From Candidatus Omnitrophota bacterium (GTDB lineage Bacteria; Omnitrophota; Gorgyraeia; Duberdicusellales; 4484-171): DNA of 64,000 nt. The notes beneath the pieces are model-generated. The model saw only the letters and a program-made list of their open reading frames with translations, did no database searches and had not been told where the DNA came from. Positions 3,300-63,694 of this stretch are shown here, one piece after another; the stretch's first letter is position 1; each line of letters starts with the position of its first letter. Made by a program: the position numbers and the translations under genes. The DNA is taken from the NCBI GenBank assembly GCA_041652815.1, contig JBAZGN010000001.1:637855-701854 (forward strand). Reading direction: 5' to 3'.

Positions 3300-3524
3300 A
3301 AAACATGGAGAAATCTATATTGATAAGGGCAAACTATCCGAAAGGATAGGGCGCAACCCACGAACCAGAACGAAGTTCGGTTCGGGGTTGCCCGGAACCG
3401 AACTAGGTTCTGGTTCCGGGCAAAGCTCTAAGAGCCTAAAGCCGTAAGGCTATGGTAGTCAGCTGCCGATGTAGTAAAAAGAGTTTAAAACCCATAGTCA
3501 TTAATAAGGCTATGGGTTTTTTTA
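3300..3524 (+). ncRNA. Candidate structured non-coding RNA of unknown class, ending in an intrinsic terminator.
   Basis: A 10-bp perfect hairpin GCCCGGAACC...GGTTCCGGGC. Competing pairings CGAACCAGAAC/GTTCTGGTTCCG. Ends with the hairpin AAAACCCATAG...CTATGGGTTTTTTT. No ORF. Confidence 0.25.
3487..3524 (+). terminator. Rho-independent terminator (hairpin CCCATAG/CTATGGG followed by T7).
   Basis: Seen directly: aaaacccatagtcattaataaggctatgggttttttt. Confidence 0.6.
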
Positions 3525-8585: not shown

Positions 8586-8963
8586 CTACTGATTTTCTTT
8601 TGAATATTGTTCAATAGCTTCAAGAACCTTCTGTGCATCTGCTTTTCCGGCATCGCTTGTTCCAACGCGCACAGATATTTTTGATTCGTTATCGCTAATT
8701 CTAAAAATCTCTATATACATAGTTTTTTCATTCGTGTATTTTCCTTTTACTACTGCAATATCCGGTTTGACGATTGCTTCTTCGAACTCCAGATTTAAGG
8801 AAATCAACGTTTTTTTTACAATTTCCAATGCTTTCGCATAAGGAACATTAAAATCTTGCTTTGCTTTCTGAGTTTCTCTCATGCTTGCGGCAACAAAGAT
8901 ACAGCCGGAAAAACTGATGATTATAGTTCCAAGGATAAAATTTATTAATAATTTTTTTAACAT
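8586..8963 (-). CDS. Hypothetical lipoprotein.
   Basis: Signal peptide with a lipobox-like FSGC. Confidence 0.45.
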   Translation of the reverse strand: MLKKLLINFILGTIIISFSGCIFVAASMRETQKAKQDFNVPYAKALEIVKKTLISLNLEFEEAIVKPDIAVVKGKYTNEKTMYIEIFRISDNESKISVRVGTSDAGKADAQKVLEAIEQYSKENQ

Positions 8964-9024
8964 AATAATTTATTTGAATGGTATATACATAGATAATAAA
9001 TATAAGGCTAATGAACGCATATGA

Positions 9025-9070
9025 TTTTATCTGTGATCATCTGTGTCTGTCTATCTGTGATTATCTGTGT
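9025..9070. repeat. Family-1 ATCTGTG iterons upstream of the lipoprotein/rSAM/helicase operon.
   Basis: ttatctgtgatcatctgtgtctgtctatctgtgattatctgtg. Confidence 0.55.
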
Positions 9071-9084
9071 AAAAAATAAAAACA

Positions 9085-9264
9085 TGCCGGAGGAGGCTTG
9101 TCCGCCGAAGCCCTACCAGCTATAGCAGAGTGAAGGGCGTAGGCGGAGAGTTGTATGTAGTGTTTGCCGTAAGGCAAACTTTCTTTTCACTACATCCAAC
9201 ATTGCCCATCAAACAACCCTAAATTATTCATTGGCGCTGAAAATGTCACAAAAAATATGAAAAC
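9085..9264 (-). other. tRNA-linked structured module D, downstream of tRNA-Leu(CAA) on the minus strand. It ends in a copy of the tRNA 3' terminal 12 nt (CCTCCTCCGGCA).
   Basis: Minus-strand core GGATGTAGTG-AAAAGAAAG-GTTTGCC-TTAC-GGCAAAC-CACTACATAC-AACTCTCC. TGCCGGAGGAGG recurs at 9085-9096 and at the tRNA 3' end. Confidence 0.55.
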
Positions 9265-9348
9265 TGCCGGAGGAGGGAGTTGAACCCACACCTCCTTGCG
9301 GAGACGGGATTTTGAGTCCCGCGCGTCTGCCAGTTTCACCACTCCGGC
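9265..9348 (-). tRNA. tRNA-Leu (anticodon CAA), type II with a long variable arm; CCA not encoded.
   Basis: Acceptor GCCGGAG/CTCCGGC, anticodon loop CUCAAAA, variable arm TCTCCGCAAGGAGGTG, T-loop GGTTCAACTCC. Confidence 0.88.
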
Positions 9349-9715
9349 TTTGTTAGCTTTTCATCGAGAACATTGTTAGAAATATAACCTTTGTCTTTTT
9401 CCCATACAGCTTAATGGTGGAAACGACTTTTGGAGAAACTTGCTTCGCAAGGTCGTTTACACCACTCCGGCTTTGTTAGCTTTTCATCGAGAACATTGTT
9501 AGAAATATAACCTTTGTCTTTTTCCCATACAGTGTAATGGTGGAAACGACTTTTGGAGAAACTTGCTTCGCAAGGTCGTTTACACCACTCCGGCTTTGTT
9601 AGCTTTTCATCGAGAACATTGTTAGAAATATAACCTTTGTCTTTTTCCCATACAGTGTAATGGTGGAAACGACTTTTGGAGAAACTTGCTTCGCAAGGTC
9701 GTTTACACCACTCCG
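9346..9715. repeat. Perfect tandem array, 3 x 123 bp, abutting the 5' end of tRNA-Leu(CAA). Each unit starts (tRNA sense) with the tRNA's first 12 nt, GCCGGAGTGGTG.
   Basis: Unit starts at 9352, 9475 and 9598. The only internal difference is CAGCTTAATGG vs CAGTGTAATGG. Each unit holds the hairpin GGTGTAAACGAC...GTCGTTTCCACC enclosing CTTGC-GAA-GCAAG. Confidence 0.8.
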
Positions 9716-9829
9716 ACATAATGGCAGAGAACAAACTATTAAGTAGGGTAAAATCTTAACATTACAGGATTTCTTTGTCAACCCATTCGAATTCTTCAAA
9801 GTTGGCAAAGAGCGAAGCCGAATGCGTCA

Positions 9830-9866
9830 ATTGACAATTTCCCTCTAGAATGATATGATTTTTCAC
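9830..9866 (+). promoter_or_regulatory. Sigma70-like promoter for tRNA-Ala (TTGACA-N17-TATGAT).
   Basis: ttgacaatttccctctagaatgatatgat, about 20 nt upstream of the tRNA 5' end. Confidence 0.5.
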
Positions 9867-9886
9867 ATTGTCGTGACTTAATTTTA

Positions 9887-9959
9887 GGGGCCGTAGTACA
9901 GTTGGGAGTACGCTTGCATGGCATGCAAGAGGTCGGGGGTTCAAATCCCCCCGGCTCCA
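9887..9959 (+). tRNA. tRNA-Ala (anticodon GGC).
   Basis: G3:U70 Ala identity pair, anticodon loop AUGGCAU, T-loop GGTTCAAATCC; CCA not encoded. Confidence 0.88.
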
Positions 9960-9971
9960 TTTATATTATAG

Positions 9972-10030
9972 GTTACGAAAGTTACGAAGGTTACATCTAA
10001 AACATTTGGATTTATTGTAACCTTCGTAAC
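9972..10030. repeat. Family-5 palindromic element, GTTACGAAAGTTACGAAGGTTACA ... TGTAACCTTCGTAAC, immediately upstream of thyX.
   Basis: Copies of the same architecture at 30989-31047 and 63631-63694, each ending 15-40 nt before a start codon. Confidence 0.65.
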
Positions 10031-10047
10031 ATTAATAAGTAAGATTT

Positions 10048-11562
10048 ATGAAAGTATATTTAGCTGGTTTTAATGTAGATACGGCAGTTTTAAAAGAGTT
10101 AGAGCAAACTGCAGGTAAACGAGAAGACTTAACTCCAGAAGTGCTATCTGCCGCTTACGCCCGCATCAGCCGCGACCCGCGGCCGATAAATGAAATCAGG
10201 AATGAAGCCAAAAAGGAAGTAGAGCGCAGCCGTAAATCCAATGAAACCATTATTTTTAAAATGGGGCATCATTCTGTGGCAGAGCACGCGGTATTTAATT
10301 TCGATATTTTAGGAGTATCGCGTTTTGCGATGGAGGAAGCCGAGAAATTCAGGCTTTGCTCATATACTGAAAAATCACAGCGTTATATTACTCTTGATAA
10401 GGATTTTGTAATTCCGCAGGAAATAAAAGGCACTCCGCTAGAAGGCCGTTTTGTAAAAATGGTGCAACTCCAGAATGAAGCATATTTTAAGCTTTTTGAA
10501 AAATTAAAAGATTATGTATTTAAGAAACATGAGAAATTAGCAGCTGATCCTAAAAAGCATAATTTACTTGAAGGCTTCGCAAAAGAAGACGCACGTTATA
10601 TTACTTCGTTAGCAACCGAGTCTCAAGTGGGCGTAACCGTTAATGCGCGTATTCTGGAGCTTATGTTACGAAGATTTGCTTCGCACCCTTTGGCCGAAGT
10701 AAAAAAACTGGGTAAATCTATCTATGAACAGGTTAATCCTATTGCGCCTTCAATTGTAATTTTTCGCGAAGCAAATGACCGCGACTTAAAAACCTATCCT
10801 GAATTAAAAGAAACCCTCAAAGAGTTTATCAAAAAAACCAAAAAACCAGCCTCAAAGAAAGGCATAAAAGAAGTAGAATTGGTTGAGTTTCCCAAGGAAG
10901 GCGACAAATTGATTTTAGCGGCACTTTTGCATACTTTTGATAATTTGTCCTATGAACAGTGTAAAAGTATCGCCGCCAGGTTGAATAAAGAGCAGAGCAA
11001 AAAGATATTTAAAACTTCCTGGCAAAACATGCAATTTTACGATTCGATGTTACGTGAATTTGAATATGTAAACTTAACTTTTAATATTATTTTATCTGCA
11101 GCCTGCTTTGGCCAGTTGAAGCGCCACCGTATGAGTACAATTACAACCCAAGCCTACGACCCTAATTTAGGCATTACAATTCCAGAATCTATCAAAGAAA
11201 CAGGAATGGAAAAATATTTCAAAGAAATTGTGGATAAGACCAATGAGGTTTATGCTGCTATTAATAAAGAAACTCCATTAGCCGCGCCTTATATTTTAAC
11301 TAATGCTCACAGGCGGCGGGTTTTAATGCGTCTTAATCTTCGCGAACTCTATCATATATCCAGGCTTCGTGAAGATGCGCACGCGCAGTGGGATATCCAG
11401 AACATTTCACATTTGATGAGCAAGGAAGTAAAGAGAATAATGCCGCTTGCGAGCAGCTTGCTTTGCGGGAAAGACAAATACAACGAAACTTATCAAAATA
11501 TATTCGGGCATCTGCCTAAAGTAGTGCAAGCAAGCTTACCTGGCGCACGCAGAATAAAATGA
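10048..11562 (+). CDS. thyX: FAD-dependent thymidylate synthase ThyX, long (tandem-domain) form.
   Basis: First half carries SxxxSQRY (SYTEKSQRY) with no RHR. Second half carries RHR (LKRHRMST) with no SQRY. The two ThyX signature halves are split across a duplicated fold. Confidence 0.5.
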   Translation: MKVYLAGFNVDTAVLKELEQTAGKREDLTPEVLSAAYARISRDPRPINEIRNEAKKEVERSRKSNETIIFKMGHHSVAEHAVFNFDILGVSRFAMEEAEKFRLCSYTEKSQRYITLDKDFVIPQEIKGTPLEGRFVKMVQLQNEAYFKLFEKLKDYVFKKHEKLAADPKKHNLLEGFAKEDARYITSLATESQVGVTVNARILELMLRRFASHPLAEVKKLGKSIYEQVNPIAPSIVIFREANDRDLKTYPELKETLKEFIKKTKKPASKKGIKEVELVEFPKEGDKLILAALLHTFDNLSYEQCKSIAARLNKEQSKKIFKTSWQNMQFYDSMLREFEYVNLTFNIILSAACFGQLKRHRMSTITTQAYDPNLGITIPESIKETGMEKYFKEIVDKTNEVYAAINKETPLAAPYILTNAHRRRVLMRLNLRELYHISRLREDAHAQWDIQNISHLMSKEVKRIMPLASSLLCGKDKYNETYQNIFGHLPKVVQASLPGARRIK

Positions 11563-48850: not shown

Positions 48851-48958
48851 AACGCTAATTCCCGCTAATCTGTAATGCCAATATTTTATCAGGTACCTAG
48901 GCAATCTCGCCGAAGTACCGCGAAAAGATAAAGAATAATCCTGTATAATTGTTTTCGC

Positions 48959-49031
48959 GGGCCGCTAGCTCAGTTGGTAGAGCACCGCCCTTTTAAGGCG
49001 GGTGTGCCGAGTTCGACCCTCGGGCGGCTCA
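48959..49031 (+). tRNA. tRNA-Lys (anticodon UUU).
   Basis: Acceptor GGGCCGC/GCGGCTC, anticodon stem-loop CCGCC-CTTTTAA-GGCGG, T-arm CCGAG-TTCGACC-CTCGG; preceded by a TATAAT at 48938. Confidence 0.85.
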
Positions 49032-49095
49032 TAGATTTCAGGTTCTTTGAAAGTTTTGTCAGCAAAGAGACTTAGAGCTTTGTCTTAACATAATG

Positions 49096-49169
49096 GTCGG
49101 ATGCAATGGTGAAAAAAGCTCCGACTACCGTCGGAGATTGCATACGACCCTCGGGCGGCTCATAGATTT
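49096..49169 (+). other. tRNA-linked structured module A, downstream of tRNA-Lys. It ends with a 25-nt copy of the tRNA 3' end plus trailer (CGACCCTCGGGCGGCTCATAGATTT).
   Basis: GGATGCAAT-GGTGAAAAAAG-CTCCGAC-TACC-GTCGGAG-ATTGCATAC. Confidence 0.55.
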
Positions 49170-49223
49170 AAGTGTATTCGGAAATTTTGATAGAAAGGAG
49201 CTTGTTAGTAAGTGATTTCCGCC

Positions 49224-49304
49224 GCCGCGGTGGCGGAATTGGCATACGCGCATGGCTTAGGACCATGTCCCTTTGGGATGGGAGTTCAACTCTCCCCCGC
49301 GGCA
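49224..49304 (+). tRNA. tRNA-Leu (anticodon UAG), type II.
   Basis: Acceptor GCCGCGG/CCGCGGC, anticodon loop CUUAGGA, long variable arm, T-loop GGAGTTCAACTCTCC. Confidence 0.88.
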
Positions 49305-49365
49305 GTTTTTGCTTGTTCGAAAGGCTTTTTTAGCCTTTGATAATTCAGTTTTGTGCGGTAGCAGC

Positions 49366-49449
49366 GTTGGATGTAGTATAAGAAAGCTTCGCCTTGCGGC
49401 GAAGGCTACATACAATCTCTCCCGCGGCAGTTTTTGCTTGTTCGAAAGG
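49366..49449 (+). other. tRNA-linked structured module B, downstream of tRNA-Leu(UAG). It ends with a copy of the tRNA 3' end plus 20 nt of trailer (CTCTCCCGCGGCAGTTTTTGCTTGTTCGAAAGG).
   Basis: GTTGGATGTAGT-ATAAGAAAG-CTTCGCC-TTGC-GGCGAAG-GCTACATAC-AATCTCTCC. Confidence 0.55.
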
Positions 49450-49546
49450 AATAACCTTGTATAAGTGCTTTTTTTGCTCGTCTCGGATCTGTATCCTCGA
49501 CGCGCTGAAAAAACAAGGAAATAACCCTTTATAAATGCTTTTTTCA

Positions 49547-49620
49547 GCGGGTGTAGCTCAACCGGCTAGAGCGTCACGTTGCCAACGTGAAGGTTGTGGG
49601 TTCAATTCCCATCGCCCGCT
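49547..49620 (+). tRNA. tRNA-Gly (anticodon GCC).
   Basis: Acceptor GCGGGTG/CGCCCGC, anticodon stem-loop CACGT-TGCCAAC-ACGTG, T-arm TGGG-TTCAATT-CCCA. Confidence 0.88.
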
Positions 49621-49683
49621 TATATCTATCGTGGTTGTTTGATAGCTTTGCGCTACGCACAATATGTTTTTTAGTATGATGCA

Positions 49684-49771
49684 GGTTGGGGAACAACTGG
49701 TTAAGAAGCTTTGCCTTCGGCAAAGAGTTGCTACCCATCGCCCGTTCCAAATTTCTGTGGCTACTTTGATA
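49684..49771 (+). other. tRNA-linked structured module C, downstream of tRNA-Gly. It ends with a copy of the tRNA 3' end and trailer (CCCATCGCCCG-TT ... TCTGTGGCTACTTTGATAG).
   Basis: GGTTGGGGAACAACTGG-TTAAGAAG-CTTTGCC-TTCG-GGCAAAG-AGTTGCTAC. Confidence 0.5.
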
Positions 49772-49852
49772 GTTATATATTAGGCAGAAAATGTTTCCTA
49801 TCCAGCATCTACTGGCAGCAAAGAGAAGAAACAATAACAAAGGATTTGAAAT

Positions 49853-63620: not shown

Positions 63621-63630
63621 AAAAGTAGAA

Positions 63631-63694
63631 GTTACAAATGTTACGAAAGTTACGTAGGTTACGAATGTCACAATTTAAATGTAACCTTCGTAAC
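63631..63694. repeat. Family-5 palindromic element, copy 3 (GTTACAAATGTTACGAAAGTTACGTAGGTTACGAATGTCACA ... TGTAACCTTCGTAAC), 20 nt upstream of recA.
   Basis: Seen directly. Confidence 0.6.

Follow-up and report, generated by a model that had tools for sequence, protein, structure and literature searches.

A tandem array of tRNA-end hairpin modules upstream of tRNA-Leu(CAA) in Candidatus Omnitrophota

Why would a tRNA gene be preceded by three near-identical tandem units, each of which opens with a copy of the gene's own first nucleotides? The locus that raises this question lies in a 64,000-nucleotide (nt) stretch of DNA from a Candidatus Omnitrophota bacterium (GenBank assembly GCA_041652815.1, contig JBAZGN010000001.1, positions 637,855 to 701,854, forward strand), here called the window; a flanking thymidylate synthase, ThyX, places it in Candidatus Omnitrophota. 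An array of 123-nt units sits directly 5' of tRNA-Leu(CAA), read in the sense of the tRNA as located by ARAGORN and Rfam. The explanation favored here, with moderate confidence, is that the array is a copy-variable amplification of an old, conserved tRNA-end hairpin module, driven by recombination and co-transcribed as a leader.

The array upstream of tRNA-Leu(CAA)

Tandem Repeats Finder, together with ARAGORN and Rfam, confirms the 3 x 123 base pair (bp) array abutting tRNA-Leu(CAA) that an initial annotation of this DNA had described. The array spans 9333–9715 (period 123, 3.1 copies, 98% matches, 0 indels, score 745) and is the single strong array that the program finds in the window; a repeat search of the window returns three 136-nt copies that are 98–100% identical. 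In tRNA sense the order is a sigma-70-like promoter, a leader of ~30 nt, three 123-nt units and tRNA-Leu(CAA). Units are numbered from the promoter, so that unit 1 is promoter-proximal and unit 3 gene-proximal (the initial annotation used a frame with starts at 9352, 9475 and 9598), and related loci and assemblies carry L-numbers.

9753–9781, minus strand: sigma-70-like promoter TTGACA-17-TAAGAT, upstream of the array (consensus scan; by-eye alignment of L006, L007, L120, L121, L124, L126 and L130)
9718–9746, minus strand: ancestral 5' leader, ~30 nt, from the promoter to the first tRNA-end copy (the same leader abuts the tRNA in L007 and L121)
9595–9717, minus strand: unit 1, promoter-proximal, 123 nt, beginning GTCGGAGTGGTG at 9717 (covariance-model match 9655–9717)
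9472–9594, minus strand: unit 2, 123 nt, beginning GCCGGAGTGGTG at 9594, ACACTG variant (covariance-model match 9532–9594, 86–91 bits)
9349–9471, minus strand: unit 3, gene-proximal, 123 nt, beginning GCCGGAGTGGTG at 9471, AAGCTG variant, CT at 9410–9411 on the plus strand (covariance-model match 9409–9471, 84–88 bits)
9265–9348, minus strand: tRNA-Leu(CAA) gene, no encoded CCA (ARAGORN; Rfam tRNA model, 48.6 bits)

The tRNA-end stubs reported in the initial annotation are real copies. The start of units 2 and 3, GCCGGAGTGGTG, is identical to nt 1–12 of tRNA-Leu(CAA), so that the statement that every unit begins with these nucleotides is exact for the two gene-proximal units; the start of the promoter-proximal unit, GTCGGAGTGGTG, matches at 11 of 12 positions. 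Units 1 and 2 are identical except for this one stub base, and two bases distinguish unit 3 from unit 2. Direct comparison in the earlier frame agrees with the single dinucleotide difference first reported, besides the stub base and the bases at the array end: the copies starting at 9352 and 9475 differ solely by CT (9410–9411) versus TG (9533–9534), and those starting at 9475 and 9598 differ only at 9716, 9718 and 9720, three of the last five bases. A repeat of such length and identity cannot have originated by chance. It is not a clustered regularly interspaced short palindromic repeat (CRISPR) array, as its 111-nt "spacers" are near-identical to each other rather than unique. The head-to-tail arrangement and high identity of the units are those of a tandem repeat or variable-number tandem repeat (VNTR).

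Copy number and structure of the unit

The syntenic region of tRNA-Ala, divergent promoters and tRNA-Leu(CAA) was compared in eleven related loci, the DNA covered being 64 kilobases (kb) of this genome and ~1 megabase of related loci.

L120/L123: one unit at the same site
L124: one unit at the same site
L130: one unit at the same site
L009: at least two units, the contig ending in the second
L132/L135: two units, diverged from each other
L121/L122, L126, L006, L007 and L008: no unit; the conserved promoter and leader abut the tRNA exactly

Several comparisons describe the history of the module. First, it is present between the sigma-70-like promoter and tRNA-Leu(CAA) in six Omnitrophota species and precisely absent from five, and unit 1 of the window sits where the 5' end of the tRNA lies in the unit-free relatives. 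The search of the lineage that the initial annotation had proposed thus recovers homologous units of 121–125 nt at the same site in five other species, and its view that near-identity implies recent amplification fits the range of 0, 1, 2 or at least 2 copies across the eleven loci, a variation among relatives that is expected of a VNTR. Second, the TTGACA-17-TAAGAT promoter is kept in relatives both with and without units. Third, L120 and L121, whose ThyX proteins are 98% identical, differ by a one-unit indel bounded by the direct repeat GCCGGAGTGGTG. Fourth, on a neighbor-joining tree of ThyX every main branch, and the outgroup too, has the unit; its absences, including that of L121, are scattered. 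The simplest history would be one in which the unit is ancestral, was lost precisely at least five times and was now and then amplified.

Same-species assemblies, found by exact-protein look-up and with flanks that are 100% identical, differ in the array itself. L001 contains one unit, of the ACACTG type; L002 contains two, ACACTG followed by AAGCTG; and the window contains three, ACACTG, ACACTG and AAGCTG, while the contigs L003 and L005 end inside a unit. The window and the one-unit assembly do not differ in a cluster of Lys, Leu and Gly tRNA genes located 40 kb from the array. Copy-number variation within the species, with 1, 2 and 3 units in three assemblies, is likely but unproven.

The unit consists of three parts: a copy of nt 1–12/13 of tRNA-Leu(CAA), a hairpin, and a fast-evolving tail of ~65 nt. 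The hairpins were placed by minimum free energy (MFE) folds of nine units and by a covariation count.

9416–9463, minus strand: hairpin of unit 3
9539–9586 and 9662–9709, minus strand: equivalent hairpins of the other two window units

The hairpin noted initially, GGTGTAAACGAC / GTCGTTTCCACC around CTTGC-GAA-GCAAG, is found in the units. From the outside in, the window hairpin opens with a GGUG/CACC outer helix; a U.C mismatch and an inner helix of 7 bp follow, and a nested CUUGC-GAA-GCAAG hairpin and the linker UUUCUCCAAAA complete it. Nearly all of the nine single-sequence MFE folds share one shape in the first ~57 nt. The first eight nucleotides of the tRNA copy are unpaired in the predicted unit fold, and the last 4–5 nt pair with a downstream "anti-copy" to form the outer helix, inside which the U.C mismatch is conserved. 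The inner helix, 7–8 bp long, is always paired and has a species-specific sequence (AAACGAC/GUCGUUU, AAAUGAUU/AAUCAUUU, AAGCGGC/GUCGCUU, AUGGACU/AGUCCAU or AACAACU/AGUUGUU). A nested hairpin of 5–7 bp follows immediately after its 5' arm, and the linker on the 3' side of the hairpin is 9–11 nt of pyrimidines and then A.

Covariation accompanies these folds. In a 13-sequence, model-guided alignment, 99.5% of cells are standard pairs and double-sided changes occur in 11 of 16 pairs; none of 500 shuffles scores as high, and slid partners are 24–47% paired. The compensatory substitutions are those of a structured element, given a model-fitted alignment with which the independent MFE folds agree. 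Among non-Watson-Crick pairs, G.U outnumber A.C by 8 to 2, which weakly favors the strand read towards the gene in a small sample from the same fitted alignment. L132 provides a natural variant: its tRNA starts GCCGAAGTGGCGG, both diverged units carry an exact copy of that start, and their 3' arms are CCCGC and CCCGCC versus CCACC. Therefore, tRNA, copy and pairing segment changed together. The ~65-nt tail has fallen to shuffle-level identity between clades, while unit length is held at 121–125 nt. Whole-unit fold stability is not unusual relative to shuffles (z=-1.6). Judged from sequence comparison, the hairpin is under selection, and the single unit is old and conserved, with only its amplification recent.

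Two tail motifs shared between modules, CTGACAA and AAGACAAAG, were considered and are not significant when multiple testing is allowed for.

The initial annotation offered a tandem promoter duplication as one possibility and described the sequence after the hairpin as AT-rich and promoter-like. The tails are A/T-rich; their promoter-like character does not survive a consensus scan (-35/-10 with 16–18-nt spacing), which finds no sigma-70 site of at least 9/12 inside the window units on the tRNA strand and lends no support to a promoter per unit. Near the array on that strand the only sigma-70-like site is 9781..9753, upstream, and in unit-free relatives this conserved promoter stands directly before the tRNA. 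Separately, the tail of L132 unit 1 contains, in tRNA sense, TGGTATAAT, a good extended -10 located ~23–30 nt ahead of unit 2, with no equivalent in the window units.

One open reading frame (ORF) overlaps the array:

9411–9734, minus strand: 107-aa repeat ORF produced artefactually by the 41-codon period, its frame kept in no other species

This ORF exists because 123 nt equals 41 codons. The initial annotation had already called it an artefact, and the comparison bears this out: stops interrupt the corresponding frame in all five other species (L009, L120, L124, L130 and L132), and unit lengths of 121–125 nt are mostly not multiples of three. No Shine-Dalgarno sequence is seen by eye before its ATG. 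A protein-coding repeat gene is rejected, as the reading frame is unconserved in relatives. A terminator scan (G+C-rich stem of at least 5 bp plus a T run) does not flag the window units, whose nested hairpin is too weak. When precursors with 0, 1 and 3 units are folded, the units fold locally and the acceptor stem is retained in the 1- and 3-unit forms.

Counterparts at the 3' ends of tRNA genes

Of the five window tRNAs, four (Lys, Leu(TAG), Gly and Leu(CAA)) have a copy of their own 3' end 110–180 nt downstream; tRNA-Ala(GGC) in the window has no 3' module. The 3'-end stub downstream of tRNA-Leu(CAA) reported initially is thus one of a set. The window 3' modules, 123–180 nt long, contain a long hairpin with a conserved G.A mismatch (GGAUG...CAUAC, tRNA sense) and a 3'-end copy that runs from T-loop position 55/56. 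Two covariance models were used, R1 built from 5' units alone and R2 from the R1 set plus its 3'-module matches (Leu(CAA) and Lys). The E-values of these home-made models are rough, and the tRNA position and orientation of every match is the stronger argument.

9085–9264, minus strand: 3' module of tRNA-Leu(CAA), with tail, hairpin at 9150–9200 and stub CCTCCTCCGGCA at 9085–9096, a 12/12 copy (R1 match 9142–9207, plus strand, 32.5 bits, E=4e-4)
49032–49162, plus strand: 3' module of tRNA-Lys(TTT), with an 18/18 3'-end copy at 49145–49162 (R1 match 49088–49156, minus strand, E=2e-3)
49305–49429, plus strand: 3' module of tRNA-Leu(TAG), with a 13/14 3'-end copy plus 20 nt of repeated trailer (R2 match 49359–49425, minus strand, E=3.5e-5, untrained)
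49622–49744, plus strand: 3' module of tRNA-Gly(GCC), with an 11/11 3'-end copy (R2 match 49688–49736, minus strand, E=5e-3, untrained)

The initial annotation had suggested that the units might be the 5' counterpart of 3'-end mimics, and the models vindicate it: R1, which contains only 5' units, finds the 3' modules of tRNA-Leu(CAA) and tRNA-Lys, both on the strand opposite the tRNA. Untrained R2 matches lie 3' of Leu(TAG), Gly, tRNA-Arg (L028) and tRNA-Ala (L009), and also in L120, L126 and L007; all are tRNA-adjacent, on the antisense strand, and point towards the tRNA. A filter-free scan of the window returns seven copies only, each adjacent to a tRNA. Across the DNA covered, which contains 38 distinct tRNA contexts, a copy of the tRNA's own 5' end occurs upstream five times and of its own 3' end downstream nine times, with wrong-side controls of 0 and 0.

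Read towards the gene, 5' units and 3' modules have a common order of parts: tRNA-end copy, outer helix, U.C mismatch, variable inner helix, nested G+C-rich hairpin, linker and tail. They have in common the placement of the U.C mismatch between G-C and A-U pairs (GUA/UCC), a CUUUCUU-type linker, a tail of ~60–65 nt, a total size of 121–137 nt, and a junction at which the gene continues ...G|AA and the element ...G|TA. The likeness of 5' and 3' stubs comes from the inverted-repeat nature of the acceptor stem: when reverse-complemented, the 3' end gives TGCCGGAGGAGG..., similar to GCCGGAGTGGTG.... The nested hairpins of the 3' modules are flagged as terminators solely on the strand antisense to the tRNAs, with which all neighboring genes are co-directional. 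On these comparisons, 5' units and 3' modules form one element family that always points towards the tRNA gene.

A long-range stalk between 5' unit and 3' module was ruled out: their inner helices are unrelated, only 7-nt acceptor strands are complementary, and most tRNAs carry a 3' module but no 5' unit.

Several observations concern other tRNA ends. In L006, at ~3383–3519 and upstream, two perfect 137-nt tandem 3' modules of tRNA-Leu(CAA), each starting from the last 18 nt of the tRNA, mirror the 5' array of the window. In L033 (8139–8300), tRNA-Arg(ACG) is followed by a ~115-nt tandem duplication from the last 10 nt of the tRNA, with ~60 nt of trailer repeated, which neither R1 nor R2 matches. 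In L008, a putative LAGLIDADG-type homing endonuclease ORF, identified by eye, lies 3' of tRNA-Leu(CAA) in place of the 3' module. In the window, an extra hairpin of ~50 nt at ~9097–9146 (UCCGCC...GGCGGA around GCCCU...AGGGC) interrupts the 3' stub of tRNA-Leu(CAA); this hairpin, also present in L120 and not in L006, looks like a nested secondary insertion. In an Elusimicrobiota single-cell genome, L051 (7740–8010), tRNA-Ala(CGC) is preceded, 99 nt upstream, by a 20-nt repeat of its own 5' end, whose last bases, CAGTTGG, pair with CCAACTG; still further upstream is a degenerate stretch that resembles tRNA-Ala and includes a near-copy of the anticodon arm. The combination of stub and hairpin would thus reach beyond Omnitrophota, the L051 case being simpler and possibly unrelated.

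Elsewhere in the window, the direct repeats TATCTGTGAT(C/T)ATCTGTGT, 24 nt apart at 9024–9070 between the 3' stub and the DUF3568 gene, overlap a promoter-like TAGACA-18-TAAAAT on the minus strand. A cyclic di-GMP-I riboswitch aptamer is present at 3318–3402 on the plus strand (40.8 bits versus a gathering score of 35). A short repeat of the GTTACGAAGGTTAC type forms a hairpin with 23-nt arms just after tRNA-Ala (9972–10038) and recurs as an 18-nt tandem repeat at 63629–63673, and GTTACTTAAGGTTACTT-like runs are found in L132 upstream of ThyX; the motif appears to be a lineage-specific short repeat.

Origin of the array and its significance

Rfam 15 contains no family that matches the module at gathering score, and at permissive thresholds (E<=10 for 8900–10100, E<=5 for 48900–49850) it gives chance-level matches only. 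A tRNA pseudogene or tRNA-like cloverleaf is rejected, as ARAGORN and the Rfam tRNA model find the true gene only and leave the units unmatched at E<=10; a known cis-regulatory RNA or ribozyme is likewise unmatched in Rfam even at the permissive threshold. A BLAST search of the whole locus against phages and plasmids matches the tRNA gene alone. A metagenome scan for the pattern CCACCATTAN{25,50}AATGTTCTCGA, in which two exact blocks proved too strict, yields 32 matches, all attributed to chance by BLAST; the same pattern gives two matches in viral contigs, and BLAST finds no unit-like sequence in any retrieved locus. A limited literature search turned up nothing specific on tRNA-flanking repeats in Omnitrophica or on partial tRNA copies with hairpins. 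The module is filed here as a novel form among small structured repeats and VNTRs.

In the favored explanation, identical tRNA-end copies would serve as short direct repeats; between them, unequal recombination or the mispairing of slipped strands would raise the unit count (from 1 to 2 to 3) or remove units precisely (down to 0). Direct repeats of 12–13 bases flanking a hairpin are a classic substrate for slippage and recombination, which accounts for both the near-identical extra copies and the clean losses. The array resembles VNTRs that arise by slippage or unequal crossing-over in its head-to-tail, near-identical units, its differing copy number and the contigs that break within it; it differs from them in that the unit is old, structured and conserved, and in that precise loss restores an intact leader-tRNA junction. 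The sole promoter-like site lies upstream and is kept in unit-free species, and therefore the units should be transcribed as leader: this single promoter would drive all of them as one extended, structured 5' leader, to be cut away by RNase P at the true 5' end of the tRNA. Extra copies would lengthen the leader, add structure to it, and may lower or buffer tRNA-Leu(CAA) output. We infer that the module neither acts as a promoter nor encodes protein, and that it is no signal dedicated to the pre-tRNA. The family would be REP/MITE-like (repetitive extragenic palindromic, REP; miniature inverted-repeat transposable element, MITE), a structured repeat tied to tRNA gene ends, with a hairpin that selection may keep on the strand read towards the gene, as single-stranded DNA or as RNA. 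The inverted 3' modules are evidence for a DNA-level or strand-symmetric element, given that tRNA-sense RNA shows the complementary G.A mismatch and a purine tract, as are the terminator-like 3' hairpins confined to the antisense strand; the G.U excess favors it weakly and with bias.

Several points weigh against this explanation. At least five independent precise losses are required, to which repeated insertion or gain is the alternative. The one- and two-unit assemblies, L001 and L002, are k141 short-read contigs, and in the window units 1 and 2 together make up a 246-nt repeat whose one mismatch is in the stub; popping of a two-base bubble together with repeat collapse could yield both shorter forms, and would look alike, since the remaining genome is identical between assemblies. 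The covariation alignment was fitted to the structure, which inflates its values somewhat, the independent single-sequence folds being in agreement with it. Evidence on which strand folds is weak, and co-transcription and RNase P removal are steps that we infer from the sequence. Finally, both of the diverged L132 units retain without change the 8 unpaired bases with which the tRNA copy opens, and copy, anti-copy and tRNA co-evolve. Neither would be expected were the module only a selfish or neutral repeat, and together they hint that some function depends on mimicking the end of the tRNA.

Such a function is the basis of a second explanation, possible but on balance unlikely, in which the units are functional cis-acting RNA in the pre-tRNA-Leu leader and what the hairpin displays mimics the 5' end of the tRNA, nt 1–8 being free and 9–13 paired. 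It could adjust maturation or yield by competition for the 3' acceptor strand or for RNase P, as a weak attenuator formed by the nested hairpin and the U/C tract, or through a leader-derived small RNA, with copy number setting the dose. The units always lie in the predicted transcribed leader, downstream of the conserved promoter. Strong covariation, the co-evolution of stub, anti-stub and tRNA, and the perfect nt 1–8 of the L132 units suit an RNA function, and sense-strand G.U pairs are tolerated (L124); on a reading of the sequences, stub GGAG/GAAG can also pair with linker CUCC/CUUC in the window and in L132. Against this stand the dispensability of the module, which at least five related species are without, a whole-unit fold no more stable than shuffles, the lack of an Rfam match at E<=10, and a nested hairpin too weak to be flagged as a terminator. 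The inverted 3' modules, moreover, give the complementary motif in tRNA-sense RNA (G.A for U.C, a purine for a pyrimidine tract), which is hard to fit to one mechanism. Plant mitochondrial t-elements and the Escherichia coli 3'ETS-leuZ sponge RNA are known cases of tRNA-like processing signals and spacer-derived RNAs. The module resembles them as structured leader or trailer sequence that borrows tRNA features, and release by tRNA-processing enzymes would follow; unlike them, the units form no tRNA-like cloverleaf and score nothing with the Rfam tRNA model.

It is also conceivable, if doubtful, that units and 3' modules are an undescribed family of small non-autonomous mobile elements homing to tRNA gene ends. 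An internal segment, the outer helix's 3' arm, would base-pair with the last target bases ahead of the conserved G|AA step of the D-loop or, for the opposite strand, of the T-loop. The gene would survive because insertion restores the tRNA end; repeated insertion or recombination would build arrays, and a hairpin-recognizing enzyme would mobilize the elements. The diverged second unit of L132 would then be an independent second insertion, its nested hairpin being by eye nearer to the tRNA-Lys 3' module than to its neighbor. Insertion sequences of the IS200/IS605 type, and their non-autonomous derivatives, have ends with a subterminal imperfect hairpin and a short guide that pairs with the flanking target. 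The module resembles such ends in its imperfect hairpin with a conserved mismatch, its fixed junction dinucleotide (G|TA), and a target-derived flank (GGUG, GUUG, GUCG, GCGG...) complementary to an internal segment that changes with the target. It is unlike them in that those elements are not known to duplicate a target of 12–30 nt, and the module has one hairpin only and no Y1 transposase seen.

A relationship to REP-like elements was also weighed. REPINs were reportedly described by Bertels and Rainey in 2011. Like REP, REPIN and bacterial interspersed mosaic element (BIME) sequences, the module is a non-coding hairpin repeat of ~100 nt in transcribed intergenic DNA with a conserved stem mismatch, its presence or absence is polymorphic in close relatives, and several diverged copies with a shared hairpin occur per genome (seven in 64 kb, and more in ten related loci, every one recognized by a single covariance model). 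Unlike those sequences, it is not dispersed: all copies seen are at tRNA ends, point towards the gene and copy the end of their own tRNA, and the direct repeats are 11–34 nt and of variable length. A by-eye comparison of the element's two ends reveals no terminal inverted repeat, and no associated REP-associated tyrosine transposase (PMC2817692) or other transposase was identified in the 64 kb of this genome covered.

Improbable is a recent neutral tandem duplication, or an assembly artefact, in a unit without significance. The near-identity of the three units, the same-species short-read contigs that have one or two copies or break in the repeat, and the 12–16-nt direct repeat that flanks the unit and would promote slippage are all as this account would have them. 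Against it, five other species have kept the single unit at this site, with compensatory changes in the hairpin while the tail has drifted to random-level identity; the two diverged L132 copies cannot come from assembly, and the L001 junction, an ACACTG-type unit beside the tRNA, is not in the window arrangement. Cross-species conservation and covariation argue strongly against the "no significance" part of it.

Still less probable are site-specific integration scars, in which an element with a tyrosine integrase recombined in the tRNA gene (D-loop side for 5' units, T-loop for 3' modules) and brought a replacement end, a later deletion leaving ~110 nt between attL-like and attR-like direct repeats. 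The tRNA-end repeats do run outwards from a fixed point in a tRNA loop past the gene end, as in remnants of attachment (att) sites; the 3' repeats start at T-loop 55/56 and extend 7–20 nt beyond the gene, and the 5' repeats end at nt 12/13. This geometry matches T-loop-type att sites such as that of mycobacteriophage Ms6, for which crossover in the T-loop is documented (PMC1762012), and tRNA fragments left by integrated elements are discussed in PMC9897764. The module shares with integrase attL/attR fragments a tRNA-end direct repeat, an intact gene, a fixed loop start and a repeat that may pass the gene end; it differs in its insert of ~105–125 nt, its lack of integrase or cargo, its occurrence at 5' as well as 3' ends, its covarying hairpin built on the end of the tRNA copy, and its tandem arrays. 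In L130, read as the reverse complement, tRNA-Leu(CAA) is really interrupted: it breaks after the anticodon loop, ...GGGACTCAAAATC, and continues into G+C-rich sequence with, by eye, a putative integrase-gene start, either an integrated element or a chimeric contig. No integrase or element gene adjoins any module: 105–125 nt lie between the repeats, and the neighbors are DUF3568, radical SAM, ThyX and PTS EIIA genes. About 12 independent deletions would each have to leave the same 105–125-nt hairpin architecture, the compensatory changes in the helices indicate nucleic-acid pairing rather than protein-binding arm sites, and phage and plasmid matches are limited to the tRNA gene. To our knowledge, no integrase class has a 5'-end (D-loop) sublocation, which also counts against integration.

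Least probable of all is a duplication that gives every unit its own promoter and one transcription start each, for while the tails are A/T-rich and L132 unit 1 has its extended -10-like TGGTATAAT, the window units have no promoter-like site, the conserved TTGACA-17-TAAGAT lies upstream, the tails are unconserved between clades, and inverted 3' members would then drive antisense transcription into tRNA genes.

If the amplified-module explanation is correct, tRNA genes throughout the candidate phylum Omnitrophota regularly have at their flanks a conserved hairpin module bearing a copy of their own tRNA's end, one that is absent from Rfam and that neither database nor limited literature searches turned up. 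In practice, such modules break short-read contigs, produce spurious repeat ORFs and give partial-tRNA matches, so that even a merely drifting repeat would supply a useful annotation rule for these genomes. The co-evolution of tRNA, copy and anti-copy demands explanation. The locus would also offer a natural system of copy-variable leaders on a tRNA that reads one codon (UUG), and the family may represent a new way for small elements to exploit tRNA genes as safe harbors.

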